DNA from: a virus
Lineage: Duplodnaviria > Heunggongvirae > Uroviricota > Caudoviricetes
IMG/VR virus record: IMGVR_UViG_3300017917_003727
Direction: 5' to 3' (one strand)
Length of the DNA stretch: 24,745 nt
Below, one piece after another: positions 1-17,698 of the stretch. How positions within the stretch are numbered: position 1 is the first letter of the stretch; every line of letters begins with the position of its first letter. Below the pieces are notes generated by a model, which was not told where the DNA came from, did no database searches, and saw only the letters and a program-made list of their open reading frames with translations. Position numbers and translations under genes: made by a program.

Positions 1-81
1 GGTACTTCAGGTTCTTCAGGAACTAGCGGTACTTCAGGTTCTTCAGGAACTAGCGGTACTTCAGGTTCTTCAGGAACTAGC
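1..81 (+). repeat. 27-bp tandem repeat x3 (GGTACTTCAGGTTCTTCAGGAACTAGC) encoding GTSGSSGTS
   Basis: Exact copies at 1-27, 28-54 and 55-81; a degenerate 9-bp periodicity continues to about 162. Confidence 0.95.
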
Positions 82-831
82 GGTTCTTCAGGAACAAGTG
101 GTTCAAGCGGCTCTTCAGGAAGTTCAGGTAAATCAGGAACATCTGGTTCAAGTGGAACAAGTGGTGTTGTATCATCAGTGGCGACAGGATACGGATATCC
201 AATAGTTTATTTACCTGATAGTCAAATATTTGGATACTGTGAAAACATGTTCCAATACAATGGAGGAGGACTTGTTTTTGGAGCAACCCCAGATGCAACT
301 TTATCGGCAGATACTTTCATTAATACTGGTGTTGTAAGTCATTACCCAATAAGTTATAGTGATGGTGGTCTAACACCTTTAGCACAAGGTCAGGGTGATG
401 GTAGAATAATGAAAGGTATTACAAGCGGGACCTTAGCCGCAGCATCTCTTTGTTATATGACTACTACGGTTGGTGGTGGAATATATACAAATGTGGGTAG
501 ATGGGCTAACACAGACGCAGACGCACCTCAAAACTCAAGGGGATTATTAGGAGTAATACTTTCAGGTTCAACAGGAAATGACCAATTAAGAAATTTTGTG
601 GTTGACGGATTGGTTACAGTACCAACAAACTTAATTCAAAACAAACCAGCAACAGAAACAAACGCATTGGGTGTTCCAATATACATCAGCCCAACTGCAG
701 GTAATTTTGATGTGGTTGCACCATCCACATCAGGTCAAGTTGTTAGAATTGTTGGTCACGTTGTGGCGGTTTCCCAAGGTCAATGGTGGACAATACTATT
801 TAGACCTGATGGAACATGGTTAGAAATATAA
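1..831 (+). CDS. 5'-truncated collagen-like (Gly-X-Ser) repeat protein, probable virion fibre/decoration protein
   Basis: Frame 1 is open from base 1 into ORF 178..831, so the true start lies upstream of the window. Bases 1-162 encode 18 Gly-X-Y triplets (GTS/GSS/GKS). The C-terminal Gly-rich beta domain (WANTDADA...GLLG...G.V...IYISPTAG...APSTSGQVVRIVG) resembles phage capsid-decoration/fibre domains. TAA at 829-831. Confidence 0.75.
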   Translation, partial: GTSGSSGTSGTSGSSGTSGTSGSSGTSGSSGTSGSSGSSGSSGKSGTSGSSGTSGVVSSVATGYGYPIVYLPDSQIFGYCENMFQYNGGGLVFGATPDATLSADTFINTGVVSHYPISYSDGGLTPLAQGQGDGRIMKGITSGTLAAASLCYMTTTVGGGIYTNVGRWANTDADAPQNSRGLLGVILSGSTGNDQLRNFVVDGLVTVPTNLIQNKPATETNALGVPIYISPTAGNFDVVAPSTSGQVVRIVGHVVAVSQGQWWTILFRPDGTWLEI

Positions 832-836
832 TAATA

Positions 837-867
837 AAAAAGGTCGGACTAAAATTCCGACCTTTTT
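837..867. terminator. Bidirectional rho-independent terminator
   Basis: AAAAAGGTCGGA (837-848), 7-nt loop, TCCGACCTTTTT (856-867): a perfect 12-bp inverted repeat with A/T tracts on both sides, lying between convergent genes. Confidence 0.9.
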
Positions 868-918
868 ATTTAAATTATCACTTGTTTGTAATACCCCAAT
901 CAAAAGTTGAAAAATCAA

Positions 919-3204
919 TCATAATCCTAAGATATTAAAAACTTGTAATGAAGTAATTGATTTTTGGCAAATATGTTGTAACTCTGTTCCTTTATAAACA
1001 GGACACCAATCCCAATCACCTGAATCAAACACATGTACTGGGTCATTCCAACATTTAATACAAACATCGTTGGTTATTTTTGTTAAGTTACTTGTAAATT
1101 CATGACCTTCTTGAACAAAACCATTAATCATATATGTATATTTTCCTAACGCCCAATTTATCCAAGATAAACCTGAACCTAATCCAATAAATTTATCCGC
1201 ATAATGTAAATAAGTTGCGACATCATCTAAAGGTCTCCCTGATATATTTTTAACACCATGCATGTGATACGGTTTTCTTGTTAAAACCACAACTTCATAA
1301 CCTAATTGTTTTATTAATTTACTTAAAGAGACCCAATTTTCATAAGACCATTCTTTACATCCCGCAGTTGCTTCAGGACCAAAAACAATATATTTTTCTT
1401 TTATTGGACGTTTACCAATTTTTAAATTTAAACCATAATTTTTTTCTTCAAACTCAAGACCTAATATATCTGTTGCTGTTTTTTGTAGGGGGATTAGGTT
1501 AACCTGATTTGGATAATAGTCAAATTTTTTCCATCCACCATTATCATCTCTAAACCAACCAATTCTATATACAACCTCACAAGTGGTTGAGCCACCTGGT
1601 AATAAAAATTCAATATCTTCGTAATCTTTTAAACCTTTAAACCAATCATTATTGAATGTACTTAATATTACTTTACAGTTGTGTTTTTTTGCAAAATCAA
1701 CAGCGTACGGTGCCCATGCAATTGTGTCACCAACAGACTTAGATTCAAATGATATTAATACTCTTTTACCATCTAATGACAATTCACTTTGTATTTCACC
1801 ATTCACTTTTATTTGCCAAGGTATGTAGTATTTTTTACCACAAGCGACCCACATATTATTAGTTATTTTGGCTGAGTGTAAAACCTCCTCAGTTTCTTTA
1901 TTTATAAATTCAACAAAATATTGTTGATAATCATCACCCAATATTTCAACACGAGGACCATCAAGATAAGTAACATTTATTGTGTTTTTTTTAGTTAATT
2001 TTTCAGTCCAAGGTTTTCTACTTATGAAATCATTTATTGTTTCCAAACCAATTTTAGCAACATTATCCCAATTAAATTTTTCATGAATTTCTTTTGATTC
2101 CAACAAACATTTATTTTTTATTTCATCATAAAATTCATATGAAAACCTCATTTTTTCAGATAAATCCTCAAAGTTCGGTTCATAATAGTTTCCAACATTA
2201 TCGTTAAAATGATTGTATGAACTTGCACTCACAGGTAACTCACCAATAATGTTTACAGGTATTCCTCTACCTTCGGCAAATTCTAATTGACCTGAACAAT
2301 TAGAATAAATTGATGGGACGCCACATGACATGGCCTCAATTAAAGGTAAATTCCAACCTTCGGAACGCGCACAAGATAAAAACACGTTACAAGATTTTAA
2401 AATATCAATATAATCTGTTCTTGATGGGAAATGTAAAACTTTGATTCTTTCATCATTCAAACCATAATACTCTAATCTTTCCTCAGTAGATTTAAAACCA
2501 TCATTAGAGAATGGATTATCAACTGATATGATTAAATCAACAGGTTCATTTTTATTAAAAGTCTTTAAAAAAGTTTCAATAATTTCTTTTGTCGATTTTC
2601 TATAGTCCCACCTACCCGCTAAGAAAAATTTAAATCTACCATCAGAAGTTAATTGGTGTTTTACATTTGGGTTAGGAAAAAAAACTGATGTATCAACACC
2701 TTCAGGAACTACTTTAATTTTATTTTCAGGATAACCTTGTTTTATTGTGACTTCTTTTTGCCATTTAGACGGAACCCACAACTCATCAAATTCCATTAAT
2801 TTATTGAAAAATTGTGATGGTTGTAATGTTGATTCCCAAACATTATAAGCAATTTTTGGTCCAATGTAATTGTCGTAAAAAATGTGGTGATTAGTTTCAC
2901 ATAACACAATATTTAAATCAGGAAAAAATTCTTTTGATTTATCAGGATAAATAGGAAAATCACTTCTTGTATTATCGGTATTCCACAATATTTGTTGATA
3001 TAACATTTTTCTATCAACGTCGTTAAAATAAGGCTCATTATCATGCGGGGTTTCATTATAACCTTTCCAAGAATTACCGATAGTAAAATTTCTTATTTTT
3101 ATGTCGGTATAATTAGATAATGCTCTAAAAAAATCTCTAGTATGTTGATTATATCCTGTTGTTCCAACATAAGAGCCATGAACAAAAATTTTAGGTTTTT
3201 TCAT
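919..3204 (-). CDS. Bifunctional glycosyltransferase: N-terminal GT4 (GT-B) fused to a C-terminal TibC/Aah-type (BAHT) autotransporter O-heptosyltransferase-like domain
   Basis: GT4 motifs: LWVPSKWQK, VVPEGVD, GRWDYRK, ARSEGWNLPLIEAMSCGVPSI. BAHT-like motifs: GPRVEI, KSVGDTIAWAPYA, CKEWSYENW, FIGLGSGLSWINWALG, and the four-Cys motif CIKCWN...DWDWCP...HICQKSI. Confidence 0.85.
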   Translation of the reverse strand: MKKPKIFVHGSYVGTTGYNQHTRDFFRALSNYTDIKIRNFTIGNSWKGYNETPHDNEPYFNDVDRKMLYQQILWNTDNTRSDFPIYPDKSKEFFPDLNIVLCETNHHIFYDNYIGPKIAYNVWESTLQPSQFFNKLMEFDELWVPSKWQKEVTIKQGYPENKIKVVPEGVDTSVFFPNPNVKHQLTSDGRFKFFLAGRWDYRKSTKEIIETFLKTFNKNEPVDLIISVDNPFSNDGFKSTEERLEYYGLNDERIKVLHFPSRTDYIDILKSCNVFLSCARSEGWNLPLIEAMSCGVPSIYSNCSGQLEFAEGRGIPVNIIGELPVSASSYNHFNDNVGNYYEPNFEDLSEKMRFSYEFYDEIKNKCLLESKEIHEKFNWDNVAKIGLETINDFISRKPWTEKLTKKNTINVTYLDGPRVEILGDDYQQYFVEFINKETEEVLHSAKITNNMWVACGKKYYIPWQIKVNGEIQSELSLDGKRVLISFESKSVGDTIAWAPYAVDFAKKHNCKVILSTFNNDWFKGLKDYEDIEFLLPGGSTTCEVVYRIGWFRDDNGGWKKFDYYPNQVNLIPLQKTATDILGLEFEEKNYGLNLKIGKRPIKEKYIVFGPEATAGCKEWSYENWVSLSKLIKQLGYEVVVLTRKPYHMHGVKNISGRPLDDVATYLHYADKFIGLGSGLSWINWALGKYTYMINGFVQEGHEFTSNLTKITNDVCIKCWNDPVHVFDSGDWDWCPVYKGTELQHICQKSITSLQVFNILGL

Positions 3205-3205
3205 A

Positions 3206-3238
3206 TTGAAAATATATTAAAAAACATTATATTTTCAA
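3206..3238. promoter_or_regulatory. 11-bp perfect inverted repeat filling a 37-bp divergent intergenic gap; probable back-to-back promoter elements or operator
   Basis: TTGAAAATATA (3206-3216), 11-nt spacer, TATATTTTCAA (3228-3238). Each arm places TATATTTT 4-6 nt before one of the two divergent ATGs (3204 on -, 3242 on +). Confidence 0.55.
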
Positions 3239-3241
3239 CAT

Positions 3242-3886
3242 ATGGCTAATGGAGTTTATAAAATAACTGAAGATTTTGAGAAAGTGTTATCTGACTACAC
3301 AGGGGCCCCTTATGTTGTTACAGTAGATAATCAATCAAACGCTTTGTTTTTGTCTTTATACTATGAAAAAAATATAAAAAAATCTATAACCCAAGACACT
3401 ATTACAATACCAAATAGGACTTATCCATCAGTTCCTTGTGAAATAATACATACAGGATTAAAAGTTAATTTTTTTGAAATTGAAGGTACTAAATTAAAAG
3501 GAGCTTACAAACTTCAAGGTAGTAATGTTTGGGATTCAGCATTGAGATTCACTGCGGATATGTATATCCCTAATTCACATATGTGTATTTCATTCACAGG
3601 TCCATATAAACATTTTAAATTAAGTAAGGGTGGTGCGATATTAACAGACAATCACGAAGCTTATTTGTGGTTTAAGAGAGCTCGTTATAGTGGTAGAAGA
3701 GAATGTTCATATCATGATGACTACTTTGATATGTTGGGTTGGAATTTTTATATGATGCCAGAACTCGCAACTAGAGGTTTATTGTTAATGAATCAATTTT
3801 ACAATATAGATGGTACAAAAAAATACAACGAGGATTTAGAATTACCATATCCTGACTTATCAAAATTTGAAATTTATAAAAAATAA
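3242..3886 (+). CDS. Compact DegT/DnrJ/EryC1/StrS-family PLP-dependent sugar aminotransferase
   Basis: Motifs: VTVDNQSNALFLSL, ITIPNRTYPSV, WDSA (PLP-binding Asp), SFTGPYKH...KGGAILTD (Schiff-base Lys region), GWNFYMMPELATRGL. Only 214 aa, much shorter than typical members (about 370 aa). Confidence 0.8.
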   Translation: MANGVYKITEDFEKVLSDYTGAPYVVTVDNQSNALFLSLYYEKNIKKSITQDTITIPNRTYPSVPCEIIHTGLKVNFFEIEGTKLKGAYKLQGSNVWDSALRFTADMYIPNSHMCISFTGPYKHFKLSKGGAILTDNHEAYLWFKRARYSGRRECSYHDDYFDMLGWNFYMMPELATRGLLLMNQFYNIDGTKKYNEDLELPYPDLSKFEIYKK

Positions 3887-3887
3887 T

Positions 3888-4430
3888 ATGTTTTACACAA
3901 AAGAAGAATTAAATAAAATAGGGTTTAAATCTATTGGTGAAAACGTTTTAATATCTGACAAAGCTTCAATATATGGTGCTAAAAATATTGAAATAGGTTC
4001 TAATGTTAGGGTTGATGATTTTTGTATTTTAAGTGCTGGTGAAGGAGGTATTAAAATTGGTAATTACATTCACATTGCTTGTTACGCTCATTTAATAGGT
4101 TCAGGTCAAATAATTGTCGATGACCACGCTCAAATATCTGGAAAAGTCTCAATATATTCATCATCTGACGATTTTTCGGGTGATTTTTTAGTTGGACCAA
4201 CAGTCCCAAAAGAATTTACTAATGTCAAAAATTTGACAGTTCATTTGAAAAAATATGTAGTTTTAGGGTGTAACACGGTTGTTTTACCTGGTGTCACAAT
4301 TGAAGAAGGTACCGCTGTTGGTGCTATGAGTTTAGTCAATAAATCTTTACCCGAATATTGTATATATGGTGGTAACCCAATAAAATTCTTGAAAGAAAGA
4401 ACTAAGGGGGTACAAAAATACGAAATATAA
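3888..4430 (+). CDS. vioB: VioB-like dTDP-4-amino-4,6-dideoxyhexose N-acyltransferase (hexapeptide left-handed beta-helix)
   Basis: GFKSIGENVLISDKASIYG...VRVDDFCILSAGEGGI...IYSSSDDFSG...LPGVTIEEGTAVGAMS closely matches my recollection of E. coli O7 VioB. ATG 3888 directly after the aminotransferase stop is preferred over the track's TTG at 3867. Confidence 0.75.
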   Translation: MFYTKEELNKIGFKSIGENVLISDKASIYGAKNIEIGSNVRVDDFCILSAGEGGIKIGNYIHIACYAHLIGSGQIIVDDHAQISGKVSIYSSSDDFSGDFLVGPTVPKEFTNVKNLTVHLKKYVVLGCNTVVLPGVTIEEGTAVGAMSLVNKSLPEYCIYGGNPIKFLKERTKGVQKYEI

Positions 4431-4455
4431 AATTGTCATATATATTTTAAAAAAA

Positions 4456-5442
4456 ATGGAATTACCATACGAAGAAGGAAAATTTAATTTTATTGTTGAT
4501 TTATTTATACCATTTGAAAAAATGTTAACAGGTGGTTTAATGGTTTTGCATAAATTAGCCTACAAATTGGCGGAAAAAGGACACAATGTTTATATTTTTT
4601 GCAAACCTGAATATCCACATCCAAACATAAAAGTAATACAAAGCAGTTTAACTTTTGACGAAAGTGGATTTATACAACAATATAATTGGGAAGGGTTCAC
4701 GTTCCCAATTGAAAATACAATATCAATATATCCTCAAATAACAAGATACAATCCATTTAACACTAATCATGTTGCTAGGTGGATATTATATGACACTCAA
4801 AAAGAAATAGAAGACACTTATGGCGAAAATGACGTATATTTTAATTATTTGAATTTTAAAACGTTTAAATTAGTCCCCCAAAGAAAACTAACCGTACTTG
4901 ATTATAAGTTAGATTGGTTGTATGTTACGAACACAGGAAAAAGAAAAACTTTTTGTCATTTAATACACAAAAATACACCACCAAACGGAGAAAAAATATT
5001 CAAAGACTTAAATTCTTTTGATTTGACCGATTGGATGAGCAAAGGCGTTACTGATGGATACAACCCTTATGATTATTTAAGAGACACATTCAATCAATAT
5101 GAATATTTTTTAACCTATGACCAAAAAACATATTTTAGTGTTATGGCAGCATTATGCGGGTGTAAAACAATCATATTAAATCCAGGAACACCATACGAGT
5201 TTGTACCGAATGCAAACACTAACCTAAAATTAAAAGATAACATTACACCAACCGAATTTAGATTAAATAATTATTTACAACAATTTGGTATAGCGTATGG
5301 TTGGGATGATATAAAATGGGCTAAAGATACTCTACCTTTAGTTAGGGATTATATTGAAGATTTAGAGACTATTGACGACAAAACTGTTGATAATTTCATA
5401 AATTATTGGAAGGAAAAAAATTTAAAAAATGATAACATATAG
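4456..5442 (+). CDS. Putative GT-B glycosyltransferase (WavQ-like)
   Basis: N-terminal TGGLMVLHKLAYKLAEKGHNV, IYPQIT..NP...VARWILY, and C-terminal FNQYEYFLTYDQKTYFSVMAALCGCKTII pattern. Confidence 0.55.
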   Translation: MELPYEEGKFNFIVDLFIPFEKMLTGGLMVLHKLAYKLAEKGHNVYIFCKPEYPHPNIKVIQSSLTFDESGFIQQYNWEGFTFPIENTISIYPQITRYNPFNTNHVARWILYDTQKEIEDTYGENDVYFNYLNFKTFKLVPQRKLTVLDYKLDWLYVTNTGKRKTFCHLIHKNTPPNGEKIFKDLNSFDLTDWMSKGVTDGYNPYDYLRDTFNQYEYFLTYDQKTYFSVMAALCGCKTIILNPGTPYEFVPNANTNLKLKDNITPTEFRLNNYLQQFGIAYGWDDIKWAKDTLPLVRDYIEDLETIDDKTVDNFINYWKEKNLKNDNI

Positions 5443-9720: not shown

Positions 9721-10559
9721 TAAACATAACTTATAATTCAGAAGGTATAAGAGTCGATGTTGGTGAAATTAGTAAATACAACAATAACAATCCCTTAAGA
9801 CTCAGAATATTAAAACATGTCAGTGGTGAAGAACAATGGGTTACAAACCTTAATGACTTTTGGTTTGCAACATTTCCAAATACAGAGATGTTCGATGTTC
9901 AAATAACAGACTCAAGAGGTGTTGTTGTGTATGAAAAATTTTGGGATGTATTTGAACACGGAAACCATTTTTATAAATCACTTTGGTTATATAATAAAAA
10001 AGTCTTATCAAATGGTAAGTTACCAAAAGGTTTGGTAATTGGTACACATGATGGTGAGTTTGGTGAGTGGGTTCCTATTGTTTTAAGAAGAGAAGCAAAT
10101 GTTGTTTTGGTTGAGGCATCTGACGCTCAATTTAATAAGTTATCAAATAACTACAAAAATAATTCATTAGTAAAACCAATAAAAAATTTAATAACACCTA
10201 ATGGTGGTGATGTTGAGTTCTTTGAAGGTGGTGCTGGTTACACAAATACTGTTGTTGAAAAGGTGATAAGACATTGGGAAACCGAAGAAGTACATTCAAC
10301 ACTAAAACCGTCAATCAGTATTACTGATTTAATATTAAATGAGTGTGGTGGAAGTATTGATTGGTTACACTTAGATGTGGAAGGTTTGGATGCAAAATTG
10401 ATTATGGGTATTGACGAAAATAAAGTTAAATTACCTGATTTTATAATTTTTGAGGATTATAATTTATCTTCAGAAGAAAAAGAACAAATATATACATATC
10501 TACATGATAGAGGATATAAAACTAAATCCGAAGGTGGAATCTGTGAGGCAATAAGATGA
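9717..10559 (+). CDS. Divergent FkbM-family methyltransferase with an N-terminal beta-rich module
   Basis: [44 protein letters not shown] overlap. Confidence 0.75.
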
Positions 10560-10945
10560 TTAGTAATACAAAAATATATATAGACCAAAGTCCCGTTCAT
10601 GGATGGGGAGTTTTTGCAAAACAAGATATTAAAAGTGGGGAATTAATTGAAGAATGTCCCGTTTTAACTTTACCAATATCAAAAGGGGAGGTAACACCAT
10701 TATTAATTGATTATAGATTCAATTGGCCACAAGGTACCGAATGGGAAGAACAAGTAATTGCCTTGGGGTACGGTTCATTGTATAATCACAGTAATACGCC
10801 AAACGCAATATGGGTGTCAAGTGACACAAAAAAGTGTTTTATATTCTACGCAACAAGAGACATTAAAGAAGGTGAGGAAATATTTGTTTGGTATGGTGAT
10901 GAAAATTATTGGAACGATGGAAGAACACACACAAATCTTATCTGA
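10556..10945 (+). CDS. Stand-alone SET-domain protein-lysine methyltransferase
   Basis: SPVHGWGVFAKQDIKSGELIEE, GYGSLYNHSNTPNA (NHS motif), ATRDIKEGEEIFVWYG. Confidence 0.92.
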   Translation: MISNTKIYIDQSPVHGWGVFAKQDIKSGELIEECPVLTLPISKGEVTPLLIDYRFNWPQGTEWEEQVIALGYGSLYNHSNTPNAIWVSSDTKKCFIFYATRDIKEGEEIFVWYGDENYWNDGRTHTNLI

Positions 10946-10960: not shown

Positions 10961-12034
10961 ATGCCAAATCCAATTAAGTATAACACAAGTACAGAAAATT
11001 TATCACTAAAAAAAGGAAACTTTTGGATAGGTAATGGTTCGGTTGATAAAGGACCAACTTCTACAACTGGTTTCTATAACGGAATAACTCCACCTTCAGG
11101 TGGTTATACCATTTATGTAAACAAAGCAACTGGTGGCCCAAGTATCATGGTTGCAAACAATGATGCTAGTTTAATTACTATTACCAATTCTATTGCAGGT
11201 GCTAATTACACAACAGTCGCTCAATGTTTCTCATATTATAATTCACAAAATGATAAATTGTGTGTAAATCAAGATTTCCCTACCGATTACCCTTATATTG
11301 TTCTTGATGGACTTTATATGTATTTAGATGCTGGTGTATCTTTAAGTTACCCTGGCTCAGGAACTGTTTGGACTGATGTTAATGGATTGAGAACAAAAAA
11401 TAATAGTACATTAACTAATGGACCAACATATAACTCAGGTTTTGGTGGACATTTAACTTTTGATGGTTCTAATGATTATATTTCGGTAACTCCATCACAA
11501 GGTATTGATGTTGGTGTTAATTTCTCAATACAAACATGGGTAAAAATAACTAGATGGGGTGGAGGACCTAATTGGAATAGAGGTAGTATTGTTACAAATT
11601 CATACCCATATCAAAACGGAAAAGGATTTTGGATATCATGTACAAGTCAAGCTAGTGCAGCACAAGGTTTCATAGCAACACCAGGGTTAGAATCTTTTTT
11701 TATGAGTATGGGTGGTGATGAATATTGTGTTGCACCAACACCTGGAAGTTTATCGGCATACACAAATAGTTGGTTTAATTTGGGTGTAAGTTGTAATGGT
11801 ACAAATCCATTGAAATGTTATATAAACGGTGTCCAACCAACAACATATGGTTGTCAGTCAAATGGACCATCATCTTATTCATATGATTCAGGTCCATTTT
11901 CATTAGGAAATAGAAACAATAATGATGAGTATTTGAGTGGTTCTATTGCTAATTTTATGATGTACAACAGAACTATGTCTGATGCAGAATTTTTACAAAA
12001 CTTTAATGCTCAAAAATCAAGATTTGGTTATTAA
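10961..12034 (+). CDS. LamG/concanavalin-A-like lectin domain virion protein (paralog 1)
   Basis: GLYMYLDAGVSLSYPGSGTVWTD, LTNGPTY, FDGSNDY, FSIQTWVK, LKCYING, GSIANFMMYNRTMSDAEFLQNFNAQKSRFG. The N-terminal ~105 aa are shared with 12314..13267. Confidence 0.85.
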   Translation: MPNPIKYNTSTENLSLKKGNFWIGNGSVDKGPTSTTGFYNGITPPSGGYTIYVNKATGGPSIMVANNDASLITITNSIAGANYTTVAQCFSYYNSQNDKLCVNQDFPTDYPYIVLDGLYMYLDAGVSLSYPGSGTVWTDVNGLRTKNNSTLTNGPTYNSGFGGHLTFDGSNDYISVTPSQGIDVGVNFSIQTWVKITRWGGGPNWNRGSIVTNSYPYQNGKGFWISCTSQASAAQGFIATPGLESFFMSMGGDEYCVAPTPGSLSAYTNSWFNLGVSCNGTNPLKCYINGVQPTTYGCQSNGPSSYSYDSGPFSLGNRNNNDEYLSGSIANFMMYNRTMSDAEFLQNFNAQKSRFGY

Positions 12035-12048
12035 AAATATTTACAAAC

Positions 12049-12312
12049 ATGATTAATGATGAACTATATATAATTTTTGATGTATCTGAAATAAATAAGA
12101 TAGATTTTAATCAAGTAGAAGAAACATCAGAAAATACACTAAGAAAATCCGTAAATAAATTAAAAACATTTGTCAAATGGGTTGGAAGTACTCCAACATG
12201 TGTTCAAAATTTGACAACTAAAGTTGGACCGTATACACATGAACAAATGTCCATTATCTTATCAACCACTGAATGGTCAAGTAATTCTGGACCAATAGGT
12301 TATTGTCAATAA
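12049..12312 (+). CDS. Small hypothetical protein adjoining the LamG genes (possible fibre accessory/chaperone)
   Basis: 87-aa ORF between the two LamG paralogs with TATTTAC 4 nt upstream; sequence YIIFDVSE..IDF.QV.ETS..TLRKS...TFVKW...GPYTHE. Confidence 0.75.
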   Translation: MINDELYIIFDVSEINKIDFNQVEETSENTLRKSVNKLKTFVKWVGSTPTCVQNLTTKVGPYTHEQMSIILSTTEWSSNSGPIGYCQ

Positions 12313-12313
12313 A

Positions 12314-13267
12314 ATGCCAAACGTCTTTAAATATACAACAGGAACTGCACCAACAAATACTCTAAAAAAAGGGAACTTTTATGTTGGTAATAACGTTGCC
12401 GATTATGGGTCAACATTTTATACAGGAATATCACCAGCTTCAGGTGGTTACACGATATATCAAAACAAAGCGGCTAACGGTCCATCAATATATGTTGCCG
12501 CAAATGATGCTGAACTTATAAGCTTTACAAATCATATTGCTAATACATCTTATAATACAGTTACACAATGTTTTAATTATTTCGCTGGACAATCTGACAA
12601 AATGGTTGTCCAAAGAGATTACGAAGAAATTGTAAGTAATGGATTGATGTTAAATTTGGATGCTGGTTATATACCATCATATCCACAAAATGGCACTTCA
12701 TGGTACGATATAAGTCTTAGTGGTAATAATTCAGTTTTAACGAATGGACCAACTTTTAATACATCAAATGGTGGTTCTATAGTATTTGATGGTTCAGATG
12801 ATTATGTCAATGTAAACTCAGGTGCTAGTTTATTATCTAATGTTAATTACACTAAAATAGCTTGGTTTTATGTGACAAATTTTGCAACAGCTAATAATAT
12901 AATTTCAGGTGGTAATACAGGGCAACATGCTTTTTGGTTATTTACCTCTAATAAATTAAATGCAGGACACAATGGAAATTGGAATACTGTTGTAAGCACC
13001 ACCACTTTATCGTTAAACACTTGGTATTGTGGGGCGGTAACATTTAATACAACTAATGGTTGGAAATTATATTTAAACGGTACCCAAGAGGCGACATCTG
13101 TAAGTACAACAACATTTACAGGAACTGGAGATATACAATTAGGTAGATATCAAACAGGTAATAACTACACAGGAAGAATCGCTATTGCACAAGTATACAA
13201 TAGAGTATTATCTGGTGCTGAAATTTTACAAAACTATAATGCACAAAAATCGAGATTTGGTTTGTAA
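12314..13267 (+). CDS. LamG/concanavalin-A-like lectin domain virion protein (paralog 2)
   Basis: GLMLNLDAG...SYPQNGTSWYD, LTNGPTF, FDGSDDY, WYCGAVTF, WKLYLNG, GRIAIAQVYNRVLSGAEILQNYNAQKSRFG. Confidence 0.85.
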   Translation: MPNVFKYTTGTAPTNTLKKGNFYVGNNVADYGSTFYTGISPASGGYTIYQNKAANGPSIYVAANDAELISFTNHIANTSYNTVTQCFNYFAGQSDKMVVQRDYEEIVSNGLMLNLDAGYIPSYPQNGTSWYDISLSGNNSVLTNGPTFNTSNGGSIVFDGSDDYVNVNSGASLLSNVNYTKIAWFYVTNFATANNIISGGNTGQHAFWLFTSNKLNAGHNGNWNTVVSTTTLSLNTWYCGAVTFNTTNGWKLYLNGTQEATSVSTTTFTGTGDIQLGRYQTGNNYTGRIAIAQVYNRVLSGAEILQNYNAQKSRFGL

Positions 13268-13372: not shown

Positions 13373-14305
13373 ATGGCAACTACAAGACCCTTTGCATATA
13401 ATACAGGTTCAACAATAAGTGGAACTGACCAATTGGGAAATTTGGCTATTGGTGTTTCCGCTCAAGAGTATTCCAAAAATATTGGTGGTGTAAAGTGGTG
13501 GATGGGCCCTGATGAGGACTTAGGTTATGTAATTGCACACCAAACCACAAGTGGTAATCAACCAAATCCATTATCTGTACCAGCTTATTTAGGTTTTTGG
13601 AGAACCCCAAGTAAAACAGACCAAGAATTTATTAACCTATCACAGTATGTTTCAAGAGAACATGGTTCACCTCAAATATTCTCTGATACTTCCCAAGCTA
13701 AAACTTGGTTGAATAATAATGGGTATTGGACCTCATATGTTGCTGTACCACCAACTCCATCTGTTACACCAACCATAACACCATCAATTACACCATCAGT
13801 TACACCAACTAAGACAGTTACACCATCAATTACACCGACAATAACACCATCACCATCACAAACCGCTTACACATATTATAGATGGCAAATAACCGAAGCC
13901 AAGACAATGCCACCTAATGCGAACTGCGTTCAGGCTGCGGAATTTGTTTTCAGACTAAATGGTGTAGACCAAAGTATGGCGGGAGTTACAGTCACAAATC
14001 CAAGTGGTAATAATCCAGTTGGTGAAGAACCATCAAAATTAGTGGACGGTAACTTGAATACAAAGGCCTTAGATTTGAATTTTGTTAGTAATGGTAATGT
14101 TACCAACTTTATATTCCAATTTGGAAGTGCGAAAGCATTTAATGGATACAGATGGGCAACTGCGAATGATGAAGAAAGTAGAGACCCTAAGTCGTGGACA
14201 ATTGCGGGAAGTAATAATGGTACAACTTGGACAACTCTACATACAGTTTCAGGATTTGCTGCCACAACAACTAGAAACACTTATCAAACAGCACAAACGT
14301 ACTAA
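13373..14305 (+). CDS. Virion protein: N-terminal anchor-like module, Pro/Thr/Ser linker, C-terminal discoidin (F5/8 type C, CBM32-like) domain
   Basis: Linker PPTPSVTPTITPSITPSVTPTKTVTPSITPTITPSPS at about 13747-13860. C-domain: NPVGEEPSKLVDGNLNTK...YRWATAND...RDPKSWTIAGSNNGTTWTTL. Confidence 0.8.
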   Translation: MATTRPFAYNTGSTISGTDQLGNLAIGVSAQEYSKNIGGVKWWMGPDEDLGYVIAHQTTSGNQPNPLSVPAYLGFWRTPSKTDQEFINLSQYVSREHGSPQIFSDTSQAKTWLNNNGYWTSYVAVPPTPSVTPTITPSITPSVTPTKTVTPSITPTITPSPSQTAYTYYRWQITEAKTMPPNANCVQAAEFVFRLNGVDQSMAGVTVTNPSGNNPVGEEPSKLVDGNLNTKALDLNFVSNGNVTNFIFQFGSAKAFNGYRWATANDEESRDPKSWTIAGSNNGTTWTTLHTVSGFAATTTRNTYQTAQTY

Positions 14306-14310
14306 AGAAT

Positions 14311-14481
14311 TTATTTCTTTTTATTATTAATTTGATTGTAAGTGCGCATCAATTTCAAACTATCCTTATAATTTTTTTCCAATCTTTCAAGTTCTTTTTC
14401 ACTTACGTTTCTTTCTAAAGCAGAATTGTACGCTTCCTCAGATTCTTTTATTAACTTTTCTATAGTTTTTAATAGTTTCAT
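14311..14481 (-). CDS. 56-aa charged helical hypothetical protein (not in the ORF track)
   Basis: MKLLKTIEKLIKESEEAYNSALERNVSEKELERLEKNYKDSLKLMRTYNQINNKKK*. It fills the gap between + genes, with TATTTAT 6 nt upstream on the - strand and TATCTTTG further upstream. Confidence 0.7.
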   Translation of the reverse strand: MKLLKTIEKLIKESEEAYNSALERNVSEKELERLEKNYKDSLKLMRTYNQINNKKK

Positions 14482-14503
14482 TTTACTATAAATATATTCA
14501 ACA

Positions 14504-14511
14504 CAAAGATA
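14504..14511 (-). promoter_or_regulatory. Bacteroidota-type -7 promoter element (TAnnTTTG)
   Basis: + strand CAAAGATA reads TATCTTTG on the - strand, 22 nt before ATG 14481. The nearest TTTG (-33 candidate, 14537-14540) is 25 nt away, longer than the usual spacing of about 19-21 nt. Confidence 0.45.
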
Positions 14512-14583
14512 AAAACTGGTCCCGTTCTTATATTCACAAACATTTCAAAAACCATATTATTAAGAAAAACCTTTTTATTTATA

Positions 14584-15849
14584 ATGAAAACCAAAAAAAA
14601 CTCAAAAATTTTTGTTCAAATTGCATCCTATAGGGACCCACAATTAAGACACACAATTGCAGACATGATTAAAAACGCCAAAAGACCTGAAAAACTAGTT
14701 ATTGGTGTTGCAAGACAGTTTAATGAAGAAGATGGTTTTGATGACTTATCTGATTATCAAGATGACGAAAGATTTAGAATATTAAATATTCCTTATAGTG
14801 AAGCTGAGGGAGTTTGTTGGGCCCGAAATTTAGTACAACAATTATATCAAGACGAACAGTATACATTACAAATTGATTCTCATATGAGATTTGCCCCTAA
14901 TTGGGATGAAGAGATGATAAACATGATAAAACAACTACAAAAGAAAGGATACAAAAAACCACTTTTGACAGGTTATGTTTCATCATTTGACCCTGATAAT
15001 GACCCAGCAGGTAGAGTACAGGAACCTTGGAGAATGGCTTTTGACAGGTTTATTCCTGAAGGTGCTGTGTTCTTCTTACCTGAAACCATTCCGAATTGGA
15101 GAGAATTAAAAGAACCTGTACCCGCCAGATTTTACTCGGCACACTATTGTTTTACTTTGGGAGAGTTTTCAAAAGAAGTACAACACAATCCTGAATATTA
15201 TTTCCACGGAGAAGAAATTTCTATTGCCGCCAGAGCGTACACTTGGGGATATGACTTGTTTCACCCACATAAGGTTTTAATTTGGCACGAATATACTCGT
15301 AAAGGTAGAACAAAACAGTGGGACGATGATAAATTGTGGGTTTCAAGAAATAACCACTCTCATTTAACAAATAGAAAACTTTTTGGTATGGATGGAGAAA
15401 CTCAAGAAGGACATGATGGTATGTTTGGTTTTGGACCAATTAGAAGTCTTAGAGATTATGAAAAATACTCAGGTTTATTATTTGAAAAAAGAGCGGTACA
15501 ACAATACACATTAGATAAACAATATCCACCAAATCCATATGAATTCAAAAACGAAGATGAGTGGAAAAATAGTTTTGCAACCATATTCAAACACTGTATT
15601 GACGTAGGATATTCTTCAGTACCTGAGAAAGATTATGATTTTTGGGTTGTTGCTTTCCACGATGAAAATGATGAAACTATTTTTAGAAAAGATGCCGACA
15701 GAGGTGAAATCCAAAGAATGATGAATGACCCTGACGGATATTGTAAAATATGGAGAGATTTTCAAACAACACACAAACCCAAATATTGGGTTGTGTGGCC
15801 ACACTCAGAATCTAAAGGATGGTGTGAAAGATTAACAGGACAATTATAA
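14584..15849 (+). CDS. GT60-family (PF11397 GlcNAc; Gnt1-like) polypeptide GlcNAc-transferase with a C-terminal extension
   Basis: IFVQIASYRDPQL, GVCWARNLVQQLY, LQIDSHMRFAPNWD, KPLLTGY, YFHGEEISIAARAYTWGYDLFHP, WHEY. Confidence 0.85.
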   Translation: MKTKKNSKIFVQIASYRDPQLRHTIADMIKNAKRPEKLVIGVARQFNEEDGFDDLSDYQDDERFRILNIPYSEAEGVCWARNLVQQLYQDEQYTLQIDSHMRFAPNWDEEMINMIKQLQKKGYKKPLLTGYVSSFDPDNDPAGRVQEPWRMAFDRFIPEGAVFFLPETIPNWRELKEPVPARFYSAHYCFTLGEFSKEVQHNPEYYFHGEEISIAARAYTWGYDLFHPHKVLIWHEYTRKGRTKQWDDDKLWVSRNNHSHLTNRKLFGMDGETQEGHDGMFGFGPIRSLRDYEKYSGLLFEKRAVQQYTLDKQYPPNPYEFKNEDEWKNSFATIFKHCIDVGYSSVPEKDYDFWVVAFHDENDETIFRKDADRGEIQRMMNDPDGYCKIWRDFQTTHKPKYWVVWPHSESKGWCERLTGQL

Positions 15850-15853
15850 ATTT

Positions 15854-16225
15854 ATGAAAATGCCAATAAGCGAAATATTGGATAGATATTCTATCGCAAT
15901 ATTAAAAAAAGAAAGAGCTAACGCTGAGAACGAAAAAGAAATTTTTGATTTGAATAAAGAAATTGAAAATTACAAAAACATTAATGAAGAAATAATTGAA
16001 AATTACATTCAAAAACTTATTGAAATAAACGGACAAATTTGGGATTTAGAGTCAGATATTAGAAAAGGAAAAGAAGGAGTGTTAGGTCTTGAAGAGGTCG
16101 GTAGAAGAGCAATAAAAATTAGAGAGAATAACAAAATCAGAGTGACATACAAAAACGAGATTGTTGAAATTTTTGAAGAAGGTTATAAGGACATAAAAAT
16201 TAATCACGTAAGTTCAAATGACTAA
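15854..16225 (+). CDS. DUF6165-like all-helical protein
   Basis: ISEILDRYSI.ILK...LIEINGQIWDLESDIR...AIKIRENNKIRVTYKNEI pattern. The start may be the second ATG at 15860. Confidence 0.6.
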   Translation: MKMPISEILDRYSIAILKKERANAENEKEIFDLNKEIENYKNINEEIIENYIQKLIEINGQIWDLESDIRKGKEGVLGLEEVGRRAIKIRENNKIRVTYKNEIVEIFEEGYKDIKINHVSSND

Positions 16226-17030
16226 AGTAGTTGTAAGTTTAACCACCGTACCTGAAAGATTAAATCAGCCTGTTGAGGACGGGTTCAAATTAGTTTTGAA
16301 ATCAGTATGTGAACAAAACTACGATGAATATGAAGTTCATTTAAATCTACCAAACGTTTATGCGGTAACAGGTGAATTTTACCTGATACCTGATTGGTTA
16401 GATAATTATTTAGAAGAATATCAACATTTAAAATTATTTAGAACTGAAGATTTGGGTCCACCAACAAAAGTAGTCCCAACAATTCAAAGAGTTGATGGAG
16501 ATACATTAATTGTTGTGGTTGATGACGATTTAGTTTATCATCCCGATATGATTCAGGAACATGTAAAATACCACGCTCAATTACCTGACTCGGTAATTCT
16601 TTATGATGGTAGAAGTTTGGTACCACCAAAATTTTCAGACCTAAGAGATTCATGGGTTTTAACGGTGGGTGAAATATCAAGAGTAAAAGAACTCCAACAC
16701 TATAAGTCTGCATCTTATTTTGCCAAATATTTCCAAGAAGATTTCTTTACAAACTTTTTAGGACATACAAAGTCTGATGATATTTTAATGTCCTATTATT
16801 TTAAGTTCAAAAAAATTAAAATGTTTGTAGTACCATATGAACCTGAGATTGAAAAAGTCAAATCATATGATGATTGGTATTCGTATCAGGGTGTTACTAC
16901 ATTTCCTGTTTTAAGACACTCAAACAGCTTGATGAATACTGGTTGTAATCACCCAACAATGTTAGAAAAGGAACCAAAATTTTTTATTCCTGAAACATTT
17001 AAATTTATACATACATTACCAATTGATTGA
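16218..17030 (+). CDS. GT-A (GT2-like) glycosyltransferase
   Basis: VVVSLTTVPERL, VHLNLP, DLGPPTKVVPTI, IVVVDDDLVY (DxD), SDDILMS. Confidence 0.75.
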   Translation: MTKVVVSLTTVPERLNQPVEDGFKLVLKSVCEQNYDEYEVHLNLPNVYAVTGEFYLIPDWLDNYLEEYQHLKLFRTEDLGPPTKVVPTIQRVDGDTLIVVVDDDLVYHPDMIQEHVKYHAQLPDSVILYDGRSLVPPKFSDLRDSWVLTVGEISRVKELQHYKSASYFAKYFQEDFFTNFLGHTKSDDILMSYYFKFKKIKMFVVPYEPEIEKVKSYDDWYSYQGVTTFPVLRHSNSLMNTGCNHPTMLEKEPKFFIPETFKFIHTLPID

Positions 17031-17698
17031 TGAACGATTTGATAAAAATTTGGGACGAAGAACTTGTTGAAAAGCATGTTGGAACTGAAATAAAATATTT
17101 AATTGAATATTTTACTGAAAATAAAAAATTGAATTACATTGATATAGGTGCTAATGTAGGAAAGTTTTATGATGTATTATCAAAAACGTATGAACTTGGT
17201 GATGTATATATGGTAGAACCAGCACCACAGTTATTTGAATACATTAGTGAGAAGTTTAAAGACAAACCAAACTGTAGGTTATTTAATTTTGCGGTTTCCA
17301 ATAAAAACGGAGAAACATATTTTCAAACAGAATGTATTGAGGGTTCAACCATAGATAGAATTGATATGGGGGTTTCCAAAATCCACGAAACAAATAACGG
17401 ACATTTAGTTCAAACAGTTAGTGGTGAATATTTTTTAACAAAAATTGTTGAGGATTTAGAAACAATTGATTTTATTAAAATAGATACTGAAACTCACGAT
17501 TATTTGATTTTAGAATCTATAACTCCAATCATCGAAAAACTTAATAAAAAACCATTTATTTTGTTTGAACATAACTACCATTCAATGATGACAGACCAAG
17601 AAGCTGAAAAGATTATCAATGAATTCACAAGTAGGTGTGGATATGAGAATAAAGAATTTAAATCACTAAACGGTGATTGTTTTATCAAACCATTATGA
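17027..17698 (+). CDS. FkbM-family methyltransferase
   Basis: YIDIGANVG, VYMVEPAP, NFAVSN, IDFIKIDTETHD, ILFEHN. ATGA overlap. Confidence 0.85.
   Translation: MMNDLIKIWDEELVEKHVGTEIKYLIEYFTENKKLNYIDIGANVGKFYDVLSKTYELGDVYMVEPAPQLFEYISEKFKDKPNCRLFNFAVSNKNGETYFQTECIEGSTIDRIDMGVSKIHETNNGHLVQTVSGEYFLTKIVEDLETIDFIKIDTETHDYLILESITPIIEKLNKKPFILFEHNYHSMMTDQEAEKIINEFTSRCGYENKEFKSLNGDCFIKPL

Follow-up and report, generated by a model that had tools for sequence, protein, structure and literature searches.

The closest described relatives of the gene reported here are glycosyltransferases that act on proteins. Gnt1 of Dictyostelium discoideum (Q8T1C6), the Skp1-hydroxyproline α-N-acetylglucosamine (α-GlcNAc) transferase of family GT60, is a soluble cytoplasmic enzyme without a signal peptide that modifies a single hydroxyproline in a single target, once a dedicated prolyl hydroxylase has acted. 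Trypanosoma cruzi OGNT and Dictyostelium pp-α-GlcNAc-T2/GntB, also of GT60, modify Thr/Ser in Pro-rich mucin-like repeats; these protist enzymes are located in the Golgi as type II membrane proteins. Family GT27, the polypeptide N-acetylgalactosamine (GalNAc) transferases (ppGalNAc-transferases) such as human GalNAc-T2 (PDB 2FFU), starts O-glycans on Thr/Ser near Pro, is lumenal and carries a ricin-type lectin domain of ~130 amino acids (aa). To our knowledge the initiating enzymes of both GT60 and GT27 are regarded as eukaryotic. Among phages, cytoplasmic transferases encoded by mycobacteriophages are thought to decorate capsid and tail proteins; these belong to non-GT60 families and modify C-terminal extensions on capsid and tail-tube proteins, not Thr-Pro linkers of fibres. 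We analysed a stretch of 24,745 nucleotides (nt) from an uncultured tailed phage (IMG/VR record IMGVR_UViG_3300017917_003727, here called the window), in which the gene at 14584-15849 encodes a GT60-family glycosyltransferase. A search of the literature on GT60 or PF11397 in phages or bacteria returned no study of the prokaryote/phage branch of the family, to which this uncharacterised protein belongs.

The window has a G+C content of 32 % and its open reading frames (ORFs) are densely packed on the same strand. The gene and the two domains of its product are as follows.

14584..15849, + strand: GT60-family glycosyltransferase gene, 421 aa (from PF11397, PHROG 24687 and an AlphaFold2 model)
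14602..15537, + strand: catalytic GT-A domain, residues 7-318 (from the Foldseek alignment to Gnt1 and conserved columns)
15574..15846, + strand: C-terminal extension, residues ~331-421, a small β-sandwich (from a separate model and structure alignment)

The ORF occupies exactly 14584-15849 and its 421-aa product, P0001, matches the Pfam family PF11397 ('GlcNAc', GT60) at E=1.7e-66 and 225.6 bits, far above the cut-off of 21, while the Pfam scan of P0001 returned no GT2 family, including PF00535 or PF13641, and no competing glycosyltransferase family. PHROG 24687 ('glycosyltransferase') spans residues 8-418 (E=2e-163), so that the C-terminal extension is part of a recurrent phage family and no artefact. 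An initial annotation, made from the sequence alone, had noted both GT60-like motifs and an extension of ~90 aa, and both are present: DSH lies at residues 98-100 (nt 14875-14883), FHGEE at 207-211, and the last ~90 residues contain CID...YDFWVVAFHD...WVVWPHS...GW. In an alignment of 54 diverse homologs, 32-83 % identical, D98, S99 and H100 are conserved at 90 % or more and E211, R217 and H235 are invariant. The DxH motif, a distal His and the acidic GEE-type loop expected in GT60 are all retained. D98-S99-H100, together with H235, probably forms the DxH-type metal site of a GT60 enzyme, a motif that Gnt1 shares, and the conserved residues may correspond to the Mn2+ ligands of GT27. We regard it as close to certain that P0001 is a genuine member of GT60.

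Structure prediction placed the protein nearest to the same enzymes. The AlphaFold2 model of P0001 has a predicted local distance difference test (pLDDT) score of 95.3 and a predicted template modelling (TM) score of 0.89. Searched with Foldseek against Swiss-Prot models its best match is Gnt1 (E=1.2e-24, 24 % identity, query residues 7-318), followed by GT27 polypeptide GalNAc-transferases, and ranks 1 to 37 among solved structures in the PDB are taken entirely by GT27 ppGalNAc-transferases (E ~1e-10, TM score ~0.5), which share the GT-A fold and the DxH metal motif at an identity to P0001 of only 10-15 %. GT2 enzymes for teichoic acid and galactan come no higher than rank 38. The initial annotation had suggested kinship with GT27 and had set an ordinary GT2 polysaccharide enzyme as the alternative; the structural ranking agrees with the former, and both the ranking and the Pfam scan speak against the latter. 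In the AlphaFold database (AFDB) clusters labelled 'Glycosyltransferase family 60' match the model, two entries aligning over the full length including the tail. Sequence searches of the PDB, with P0001 and with the 54-sequence profile, found no relative. The highest 19-residue hydropathy in P0001 is 0.76 and the first β-strand of the fold begins at the protein start; neither a signal peptide nor a membrane segment was found by hydropathy and inspection of the protein start. P0001 is therefore predicted to be soluble, as Gnt1 is, unlike the Golgi membrane proteins OGNT and GntB, and it comes from a prokaryotic virus.

Modelled alone, residues 316-421 form seven strands and one helix (pLDDT 94.8). 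Foldseek found nothing at E≤0.001 for this C-terminal domain in the PDB, and in an exhaustive VIA-align search the best-scoring structures were FN3/Ig-like sandwiches (Z 7.6, root-mean-square deviation 2.7 Å, 78 residues); these scores are generic, and VIA-align itself rates FN3-like matches as a common arrangement. The extension thus models as a ~90-aa FN3/Ig-like sandwich, where GT27 enzymes have a ricin-type domain of ~130 aa; no ricin-type or other lectin stood out in either search. Homologs from bacteria and jumbo phages have the domain; it is absent from the Gnt1 alignment, Gnt1 having no such FN3-like domain, and many multi-domain relatives match only residues ~5-310 of P0001, without it. 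The earlier suggestion that the extension takes the part of the ppGalNAc-transferase lectin domain is unsupported as worded, and any lectin-like role would be pure speculation. Among the relatives are many giant proteins (P0121-P0132, P0150), which reach 2,461 aa and contain between two and five GT60 stretches.

The genes flanking GT60 point to proteins as its acceptors. Three neighbours are central to this reading.

13373..14305, + strand: upstream candidate acceptor, 310 aa, with a conserved N-terminal module, a Thr-Pro/Ser-Pro (TP/SP) linker and an F5/8 type C (discoidin) domain
18386..20056, + strand: two-domain transferase, HtrL_YibB-like plus GT-A (GT2/TAGT-like), 556 aa (PF09612, E=3.2e-18; weak PF20691)
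20087..22885, + strand: main candidate acceptor, Thr/Pro-rich and Cys-rich, 932 aa, with 77 TP/SP dipeptides, 19 % Thr and 12 % Pro

The linker of the upstream protein (nt 13736-13855) holds nine TP/SP dipeptides in 40 aa; its discoidin domain matches PF00754 at E=5.5e-7 and the C-terminal domain matches a PHROG annotated 'tail protein'. Homologs of the 932-aa protein occur in two related phage contigs, G019 (71.7 kb), where the gene follows the island at 60 % identity, and G001 (294,914 bp, 98 % complete by CheckV estimate). We called ORFs in 93 fetched loci and scored as TP/SP-rich those with at least six Thr/Ser-Pro dipeptides within 40 aa. After dereplication at 95 % GT60 identity, the ORF directly upstream of GT60 was TP/SP-rich in 28 of 42 loci, compared with 6 % of 567 other ORFs. 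In the dereplicated set these TP/SP-rich upstream proteins are 188 to 1,182 aa long, the longest in any fetched locus having 2,194 aa, and their terminal domains differ.

A second constant of the locus is the HtrL-like gene: 88 of the 93 loci have a homolog of it downstream of GT60, in the same orientation. The gap between the two genes is 12 nt in Gemmatimonadota (12-51 nt where they are adjacent), up to 2.4 kb in Saprospiraceae and 0.8-9.3 kb in phages, reaching 17.5 kb in G001, and in the metagenomic protein P0150 an HtrL domain is fused to a full GT60. Neither this pairing nor repetitive TP tracts are features of Gnt1. We presume that the HtrL-like transferase is a chain extender. Between the two genes the window carries a variable cassette, assigned by Pfam.

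15854..18381, + strand: variable cassette of a 123-aa ORF, a GT2-like gene, an FkbM methyltransferase and a methyltransferase-like ORF
15854-16225, + strand: 123-aa ORF, no match in the Pfam scan
16218-17030, + strand: GT2-like transferase
17027-17698, + strand: FkbM methyltransferase
17677-18381, + strand: methyltransferase-like ORF

The GT60 and HtrL-like genes at the two ends are each 83 % identical between the window and G019, whereas the cassette ORFs of the window have no BLAST counterpart in the corresponding interval of G019, which holds five unrelated genes.

Bacterial loci carry more weight than those of phages for the link to a protein acceptor. In loci from Saprospiraceae, Lewinellaceae, Bacteroidia and Gemmatimonadaceae, a single strongly TP-rich stretch was found across up to 21 kb, at a distance of 141-675 nt from GT60, and by a looser measure of Ser/Thr/Pro (S/T/P) content an S/T/P-rich gene stands beside GT60 in all nine evaluable loci. 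These neighbours carry RRxAxK-type twin-arginine-like motifs and, in Bacteroidota, also a type IX secretion tail (PF18962); such signals would permit glycosylation in the cytoplasm before export. The initial annotation had named Thr in the neighbouring TP repeats as the acceptor, and gene order strongly couples GT60 to Thr/Ser-Pro-rich proteins in phages and in two bacterial phyla. Two further features of these modules were observed. The S/T/P-rich neighbour in a Gemmatimonadaceae locus (L011:9245-9970, +) has at its N-terminus a PqqD-like domain (PF05402, E=1.5e-7), whose fold recognises peptides in pathways for ribosomally synthesised and post-translationally modified peptides; the twin-arginine-like motif and a pure TP-rich tail come after it. 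In a Saprospiraceae locus a 691-aa protein with a sulfotransferase domain (PF13469; L001:6373-8448, −) adjoins the TP-rich gene of the GT60 module, which may indicate sulfation of the glycan or the protein there.

Homologs of GT60 are also found in cultured phages. ORF334 of the Xanthomonas jumbo phage XacN1 is 46 % identical to P0001 over 98 % of its length; with the Xoo-sp13 and Stenotrophomonas CM1/RAS14 homologs the range is 45-47 % identity, the alignments covering 97-98 % of the length and taking in the C-terminal domain. XacN1 resembles the window in having the same GT60...HtrL island (HtrL-like homologs of XacN1 and RAS14 are 39-41 % identical, the pair bracketing a carbamoyltransferase) and a genome rich in TP-tract proteins: 15 of its ORFs are TP-rich in the style xTPxTP, one of them encoding a 3,313-aa protein 9 kb from ORF334. 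It differs in phage lineage and host, in the carbamoyltransferase of its cassette and in immediate neighbours that are not TP-rich. XacN1 virions contain at least two proteins stained by periodic acid-Schiff, and ORF334 and ORF328, the latter a GT9 gene near the GT60 island, have been proposed as the source of these virion glycoproteins (PMC5852040). Glycosylated virion proteins thus exist in a cultured relative, which fits a protein acceptor; the link from enzyme to substrate is a proposal there as here.

We consider it probable that GT60 with its HtrL-like partner starts O-glycans on the Thr/Ser-Pro tracts of phage fibre proteins. In the pathway that we infer, with its protein acceptor, Thr/Ser residue, donor sugar and order of action, P0001 would act as a soluble, cytoplasmic GT-A enzyme putting the first sugar on protein hydroxyls in Thr/Ser-Pro linker tracts. 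The acceptors would be fibre or decoration proteins of the phage itself, for which 13373-14305 and 20087-22885 are candidates, modified during their synthesis in the host cytoplasm. The sugar would probably be an N-acetylhexosamine, e.g. α-GlcNAc from a uridine diphosphate (UDP) sugar, and the HtrL-like transferase and the swappable transferase/methyltransferase cassette would then extend and decorate the chain.

Several observations weigh against this reading. The immediate neighbour of GT60 is not TP-rich in 14 of the 42 dereplicated loci, nor in XacN1 and RAS14. Since the phage loci have a common ancestry, the 28 of 42 are not 28 independent events; TP linkers are moreover common in the structural genes of these phages, and the adjacency could be partly positional. 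P4H-like genes (for prolyl 4-hydroxylase) in G001, G019 and one bacterial module make hydroxyproline a possible acceptor, and the gene at 919-3204, an Aah/TibC-type transferase, could be an alternative initiator serving the same tracts. Sugar on the candidate acceptors is a prediction, and the donor is not readable from sequence. The stained bands of XacN1 were not assigned to particular proteins (PMC5852040).

The best surviving alternative, which we nevertheless consider unlikely, is that GT60, the HtrL-like transferase and the cassette build or alter a soluble or surface glycan, e.g. a host polysaccharide or lipopolysaccharide modified against superinfection, and that the TP-rich neighbours are coincidental. 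HtrL/YibB was first tied to lipopolysaccharide core loci, as the family name records, source annotations read 'cell wall biosynthesis', and the window as a whole is a large island of sugar-modifying genes, among them acetyltransferases, methyltransferases and an aminotransferase-like gene. The genes immediately beside GT60 in XacN1 and RAS14, replication genes and the carbamoyltransferase, would also suit such a role. However none of the proteins in the window has a membrane-like segment and none is a polyprenyl-phosphate transferase, flippase or polymerase; the window thus holds no machinery of lipid-linked assembly or export, which speaks against the assembly of a lipid-linked polysaccharide. 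The nearest structures are of protein-acting enzymes, with teichoic-acid and galactan GT2 enzymes further down the ranking, and in two bacterial phyla the enzyme is found in compact modules of three genes together with an S/T/P-rich protein.

Somewhat less likely again is a Skp1-like route, in which a 2-oxoglutarate (2OG)-Fe(II) prolyl hydroxylase of phage or host would make hydroxyproline in the TP tracts or in a collagen-like fibre and GT60 would glycosylate that residue. The closest named structural relative of P0001, Gnt1, is specific for hydroxyproline, and some AFDB entries are dioxygenase-GT60 fusions. Within the window a Pfam scan of 22 of the 23 gene-sized ORFs found no PF13640-type prolyl hydroxylase, and a phmmer search of every six-frame ORF of at least 70 aa, seeded with four P4H-like sequences, gave no P4H-like ORF, as the initial annotation had remarked. 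Related loci do encode such enzymes. G001 has two PF13640 matches; a group of near-identical contigs (G019, G020, G021 and G039), whose GT60 is 83 % identical to that of the window, has a P4H-like gene ~24 kb from GT60; and in a Lewinellaceae module a P4H-type 2OG oxygenase (PF13640; L007:7374-8000, −), homologous to a 195-aa gene of phage G001 (E=1e-16), comes directly after the gene of a TP/SP-rich type IX secretion protein, which is itself next to GT60 and the HtrL-like gene. Absence from the window alone is therefore a weak argument for Thr, and the initial proposal loses that part of its reasoning.

In G001 and G019 the P4H-like genes adjoin a collagen-like gene and not GT60, the syntenic spot of the G019 gene holds only 88 nt in the window, and the complete genomes of the cultured GT60 phages XacN1 and RAS14 contain no PF13640 match. 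This pattern favours Thr/Ser as the predicted acceptor residue, with hydroxyproline a live rival. A P4H-like gene is moreover found nearby in only one of the nine bacterial modules, and other members of GT60, the polypeptide α-GlcNAc-transferases of T. cruzi and Dictyostelium, act on Thr/Ser. The P4H-like genes of the relatives cluster with long collagen-like fibre genes of GPQGAQ / GTS repeats (G001 287687-294628; G019 2-4464), which suggests a separate system of collagen hydroxylation that the window would lack at the syntenic spot.

The third alternative concerns another glycosyltransferase at the far end of the window, which like the HtrL-like partner at 18386-20056 had gone unmentioned in the initial annotation.

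919..3204, − strand: GT4 fused to an Aah/TibC-type protein O-heptosyltransferase, 761 aa (TIGR04414, PF00534, PF01075, PF21129)

The Aah/TibC family glycosylates Ser in the repeats of secreted adhesins in the cytoplasm. The match to TIGR04414 over residues 407-758 (E=2.6e-65, 220.8 bits) exceeds the curated cut-off of 200, and homologs are found in G001 (67 % identity) and G019; XacN1 has its GT9 gene near its own island. It is conceivable, and in our view improbable, that this enzyme starts the fibre glycans while GT60 has another protein target or adds a later sugar. The gene adjoins the collagen-like gene at 1-831 rather than the TP-rich genes, and the bacterial modules of TP-rich protein, GT60 and HtrL-like transferase have no gene of this type; both systems can coexist with different targets. 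The phage thus carries two unrelated families with known or suspected roles in cytoplasmic protein glycosylation, which strengthens the picture of particle-protein glycosylation.

That the island instead glycosylates modified bases of the phage DNA, as in T4-type glycosylation of hydroxymethylcytosine (HMC), is very improbable: relatives do have a T4-type major capsid protein, and the second domain of the HtrL-like protein weakly matches a TET-associated glycosyltransferase (E=0.0012, below the cut-off) and a PHROG annotated beta-glucosyl-HMC-alpha-glucosyltransferase (E=6e-4), but these matches fall below curated thresholds, GT60 itself has none, and GT60/HtrL pairs are found in bacterial chromosomes beside secreted S/T/P-rich proteins.

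Protein O-glycosylation of TP/SP tracts is thus our preferred reading, and the distribution of the gene bears on the phages and hosts in which it might operate. In IMG/VR, 350 viral contigs, the longest of 295 kb, carry close GT60 homologs at 77-85 % identity, and the family as a whole comprises more than 7,000 metagenomic protein clusters at 90 % identity and 4,517 clusters at 50 % identity. Megablast of the window DNA against a phage collection gave no match. G001 encodes a T4-type major capsid protein (PF07068, E=3e-64) and shares most window genes at 44-82 % identity in a different order, and G019 is collinear with the window from a collagen-like gene through the sugar-enzyme block, LamG-type fibre genes, GT60, cassette and HtrL-like gene to the TP-rich protein. 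These similarities, with the T4-type capsid, indicate that the window derives from a large uncultured T4-like phage. In G001 a 140-aa TP-rich protein (104655-105077, −, within L111) is encoded immediately downstream of the major capsid gene; its Cys-containing N-terminus (MACKK...) resembles those of TP-rich proteins upstream of GT60 in three other loci (L028, L030 and L039), and it is possibly a glycosylated head-decoration protein.

Viral GT60 sequences form one clade in our tree (support 95/99), with genes of Saprospiraceae/Bacteroidia as nearest neighbours. Near-identical viral loci and the loci L006, L010, L012 and L013 were left out of this tree and the row for L009, a wrong ORF, is disregarded; we read no root and no direction of transfer from it. 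The bacterial gene is patchy and no core gene of a lineage, being found in 1 of 301 genomes across Bacteroidota (the centre genome itself) and 7 of 201 genomes of Saprospiraceae. The Saprospiraceae affinity of GT60 together with the SprB repeats encoded at the 3′ end of the window gives a hint of a Bacteroidota host. The remaining features of the window are given below.

10961..13267, + strand: two LamG-type (concanavalin-like) fibre-like proteins (PF13385, E=1e-13 and 2e-21) with an 87-aa ORF between them
14311..14481, − strand: small lysine/glutamate-rich ORF of 56 aa, an uncertain gene, from six-frame reading of 14306-14583 (the 278-nt gap before GT60)
23110-24744, + strand: 3′-open ORF with SprB repeats (PF13573, E=5.7e-10), a gliding-adhesin repeat of Bacteroidota

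The LamG-type proteins share their N-terminal module with the protein at 13373-14305 and match PHROG 8510 ('virion structural protein'). A 129-aa SET-domain protein (10556-10945, +; PF00856, E=2e-19), 69 % identical in G001, separates the sugar-enzyme block from the fibre genes. A 214-aa protein at 3242-3886 (+) aligns with just the initial quarter of the DegT/DnrJ aminotransferase profile and is kept at the same length and 77-83 % identity in G001 and G019, as expected of a short conserved protein and not of a broken gene. With regard to transcription signals, the T4 late promoter word TATAAATA occurs at 14487-14494 (+), 90 nt upstream of the GT60 start; the window contains five copies where 5.5 are expected, which is not above chance, and we draw no conclusion from this copy. 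TATTTAT, with 14 matches in the window against 18.4 expected, is likewise not commoner than chance, and scans of the window for sigma-70-like promoters and terminator-like structures gave background levels.

Taken more widely, the data raise a possibility that we put forward tentatively and rate slightly short of even: GT60 and the HtrL-like transferase would constitute a conserved prokaryotic module for cytoplasmic 'mucin-type' O-glycosylation, with which bacteria would coat S/T/P-rich proteins bearing twin-arginine-like signals, and in Bacteroidota type IX secretion tails as well, before export, and which abundant large T4-like phages, probably of Saprospiraceae-like hosts, would have acquired and set next to their fibre genes, the swappable cassette varying the glycan of the particle. 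XacN1, which is cultured and tractable, and public proteomics data on its virions (PXD008065) make the glycosylation idea directly testable. A soluble prokaryote/phage branch of GT60, set apart by an additional domain, a constant partner enzyme and neighbours with Thr/Pro repeats, would mean that viruses can make mucin-like protein coats in the bacterial cytoplasm. Given the large size of the family, phage fibres coated with glycan could be common in nature, and such coats would bear on host recognition, on particle stability and on escape from proteases or grazers.

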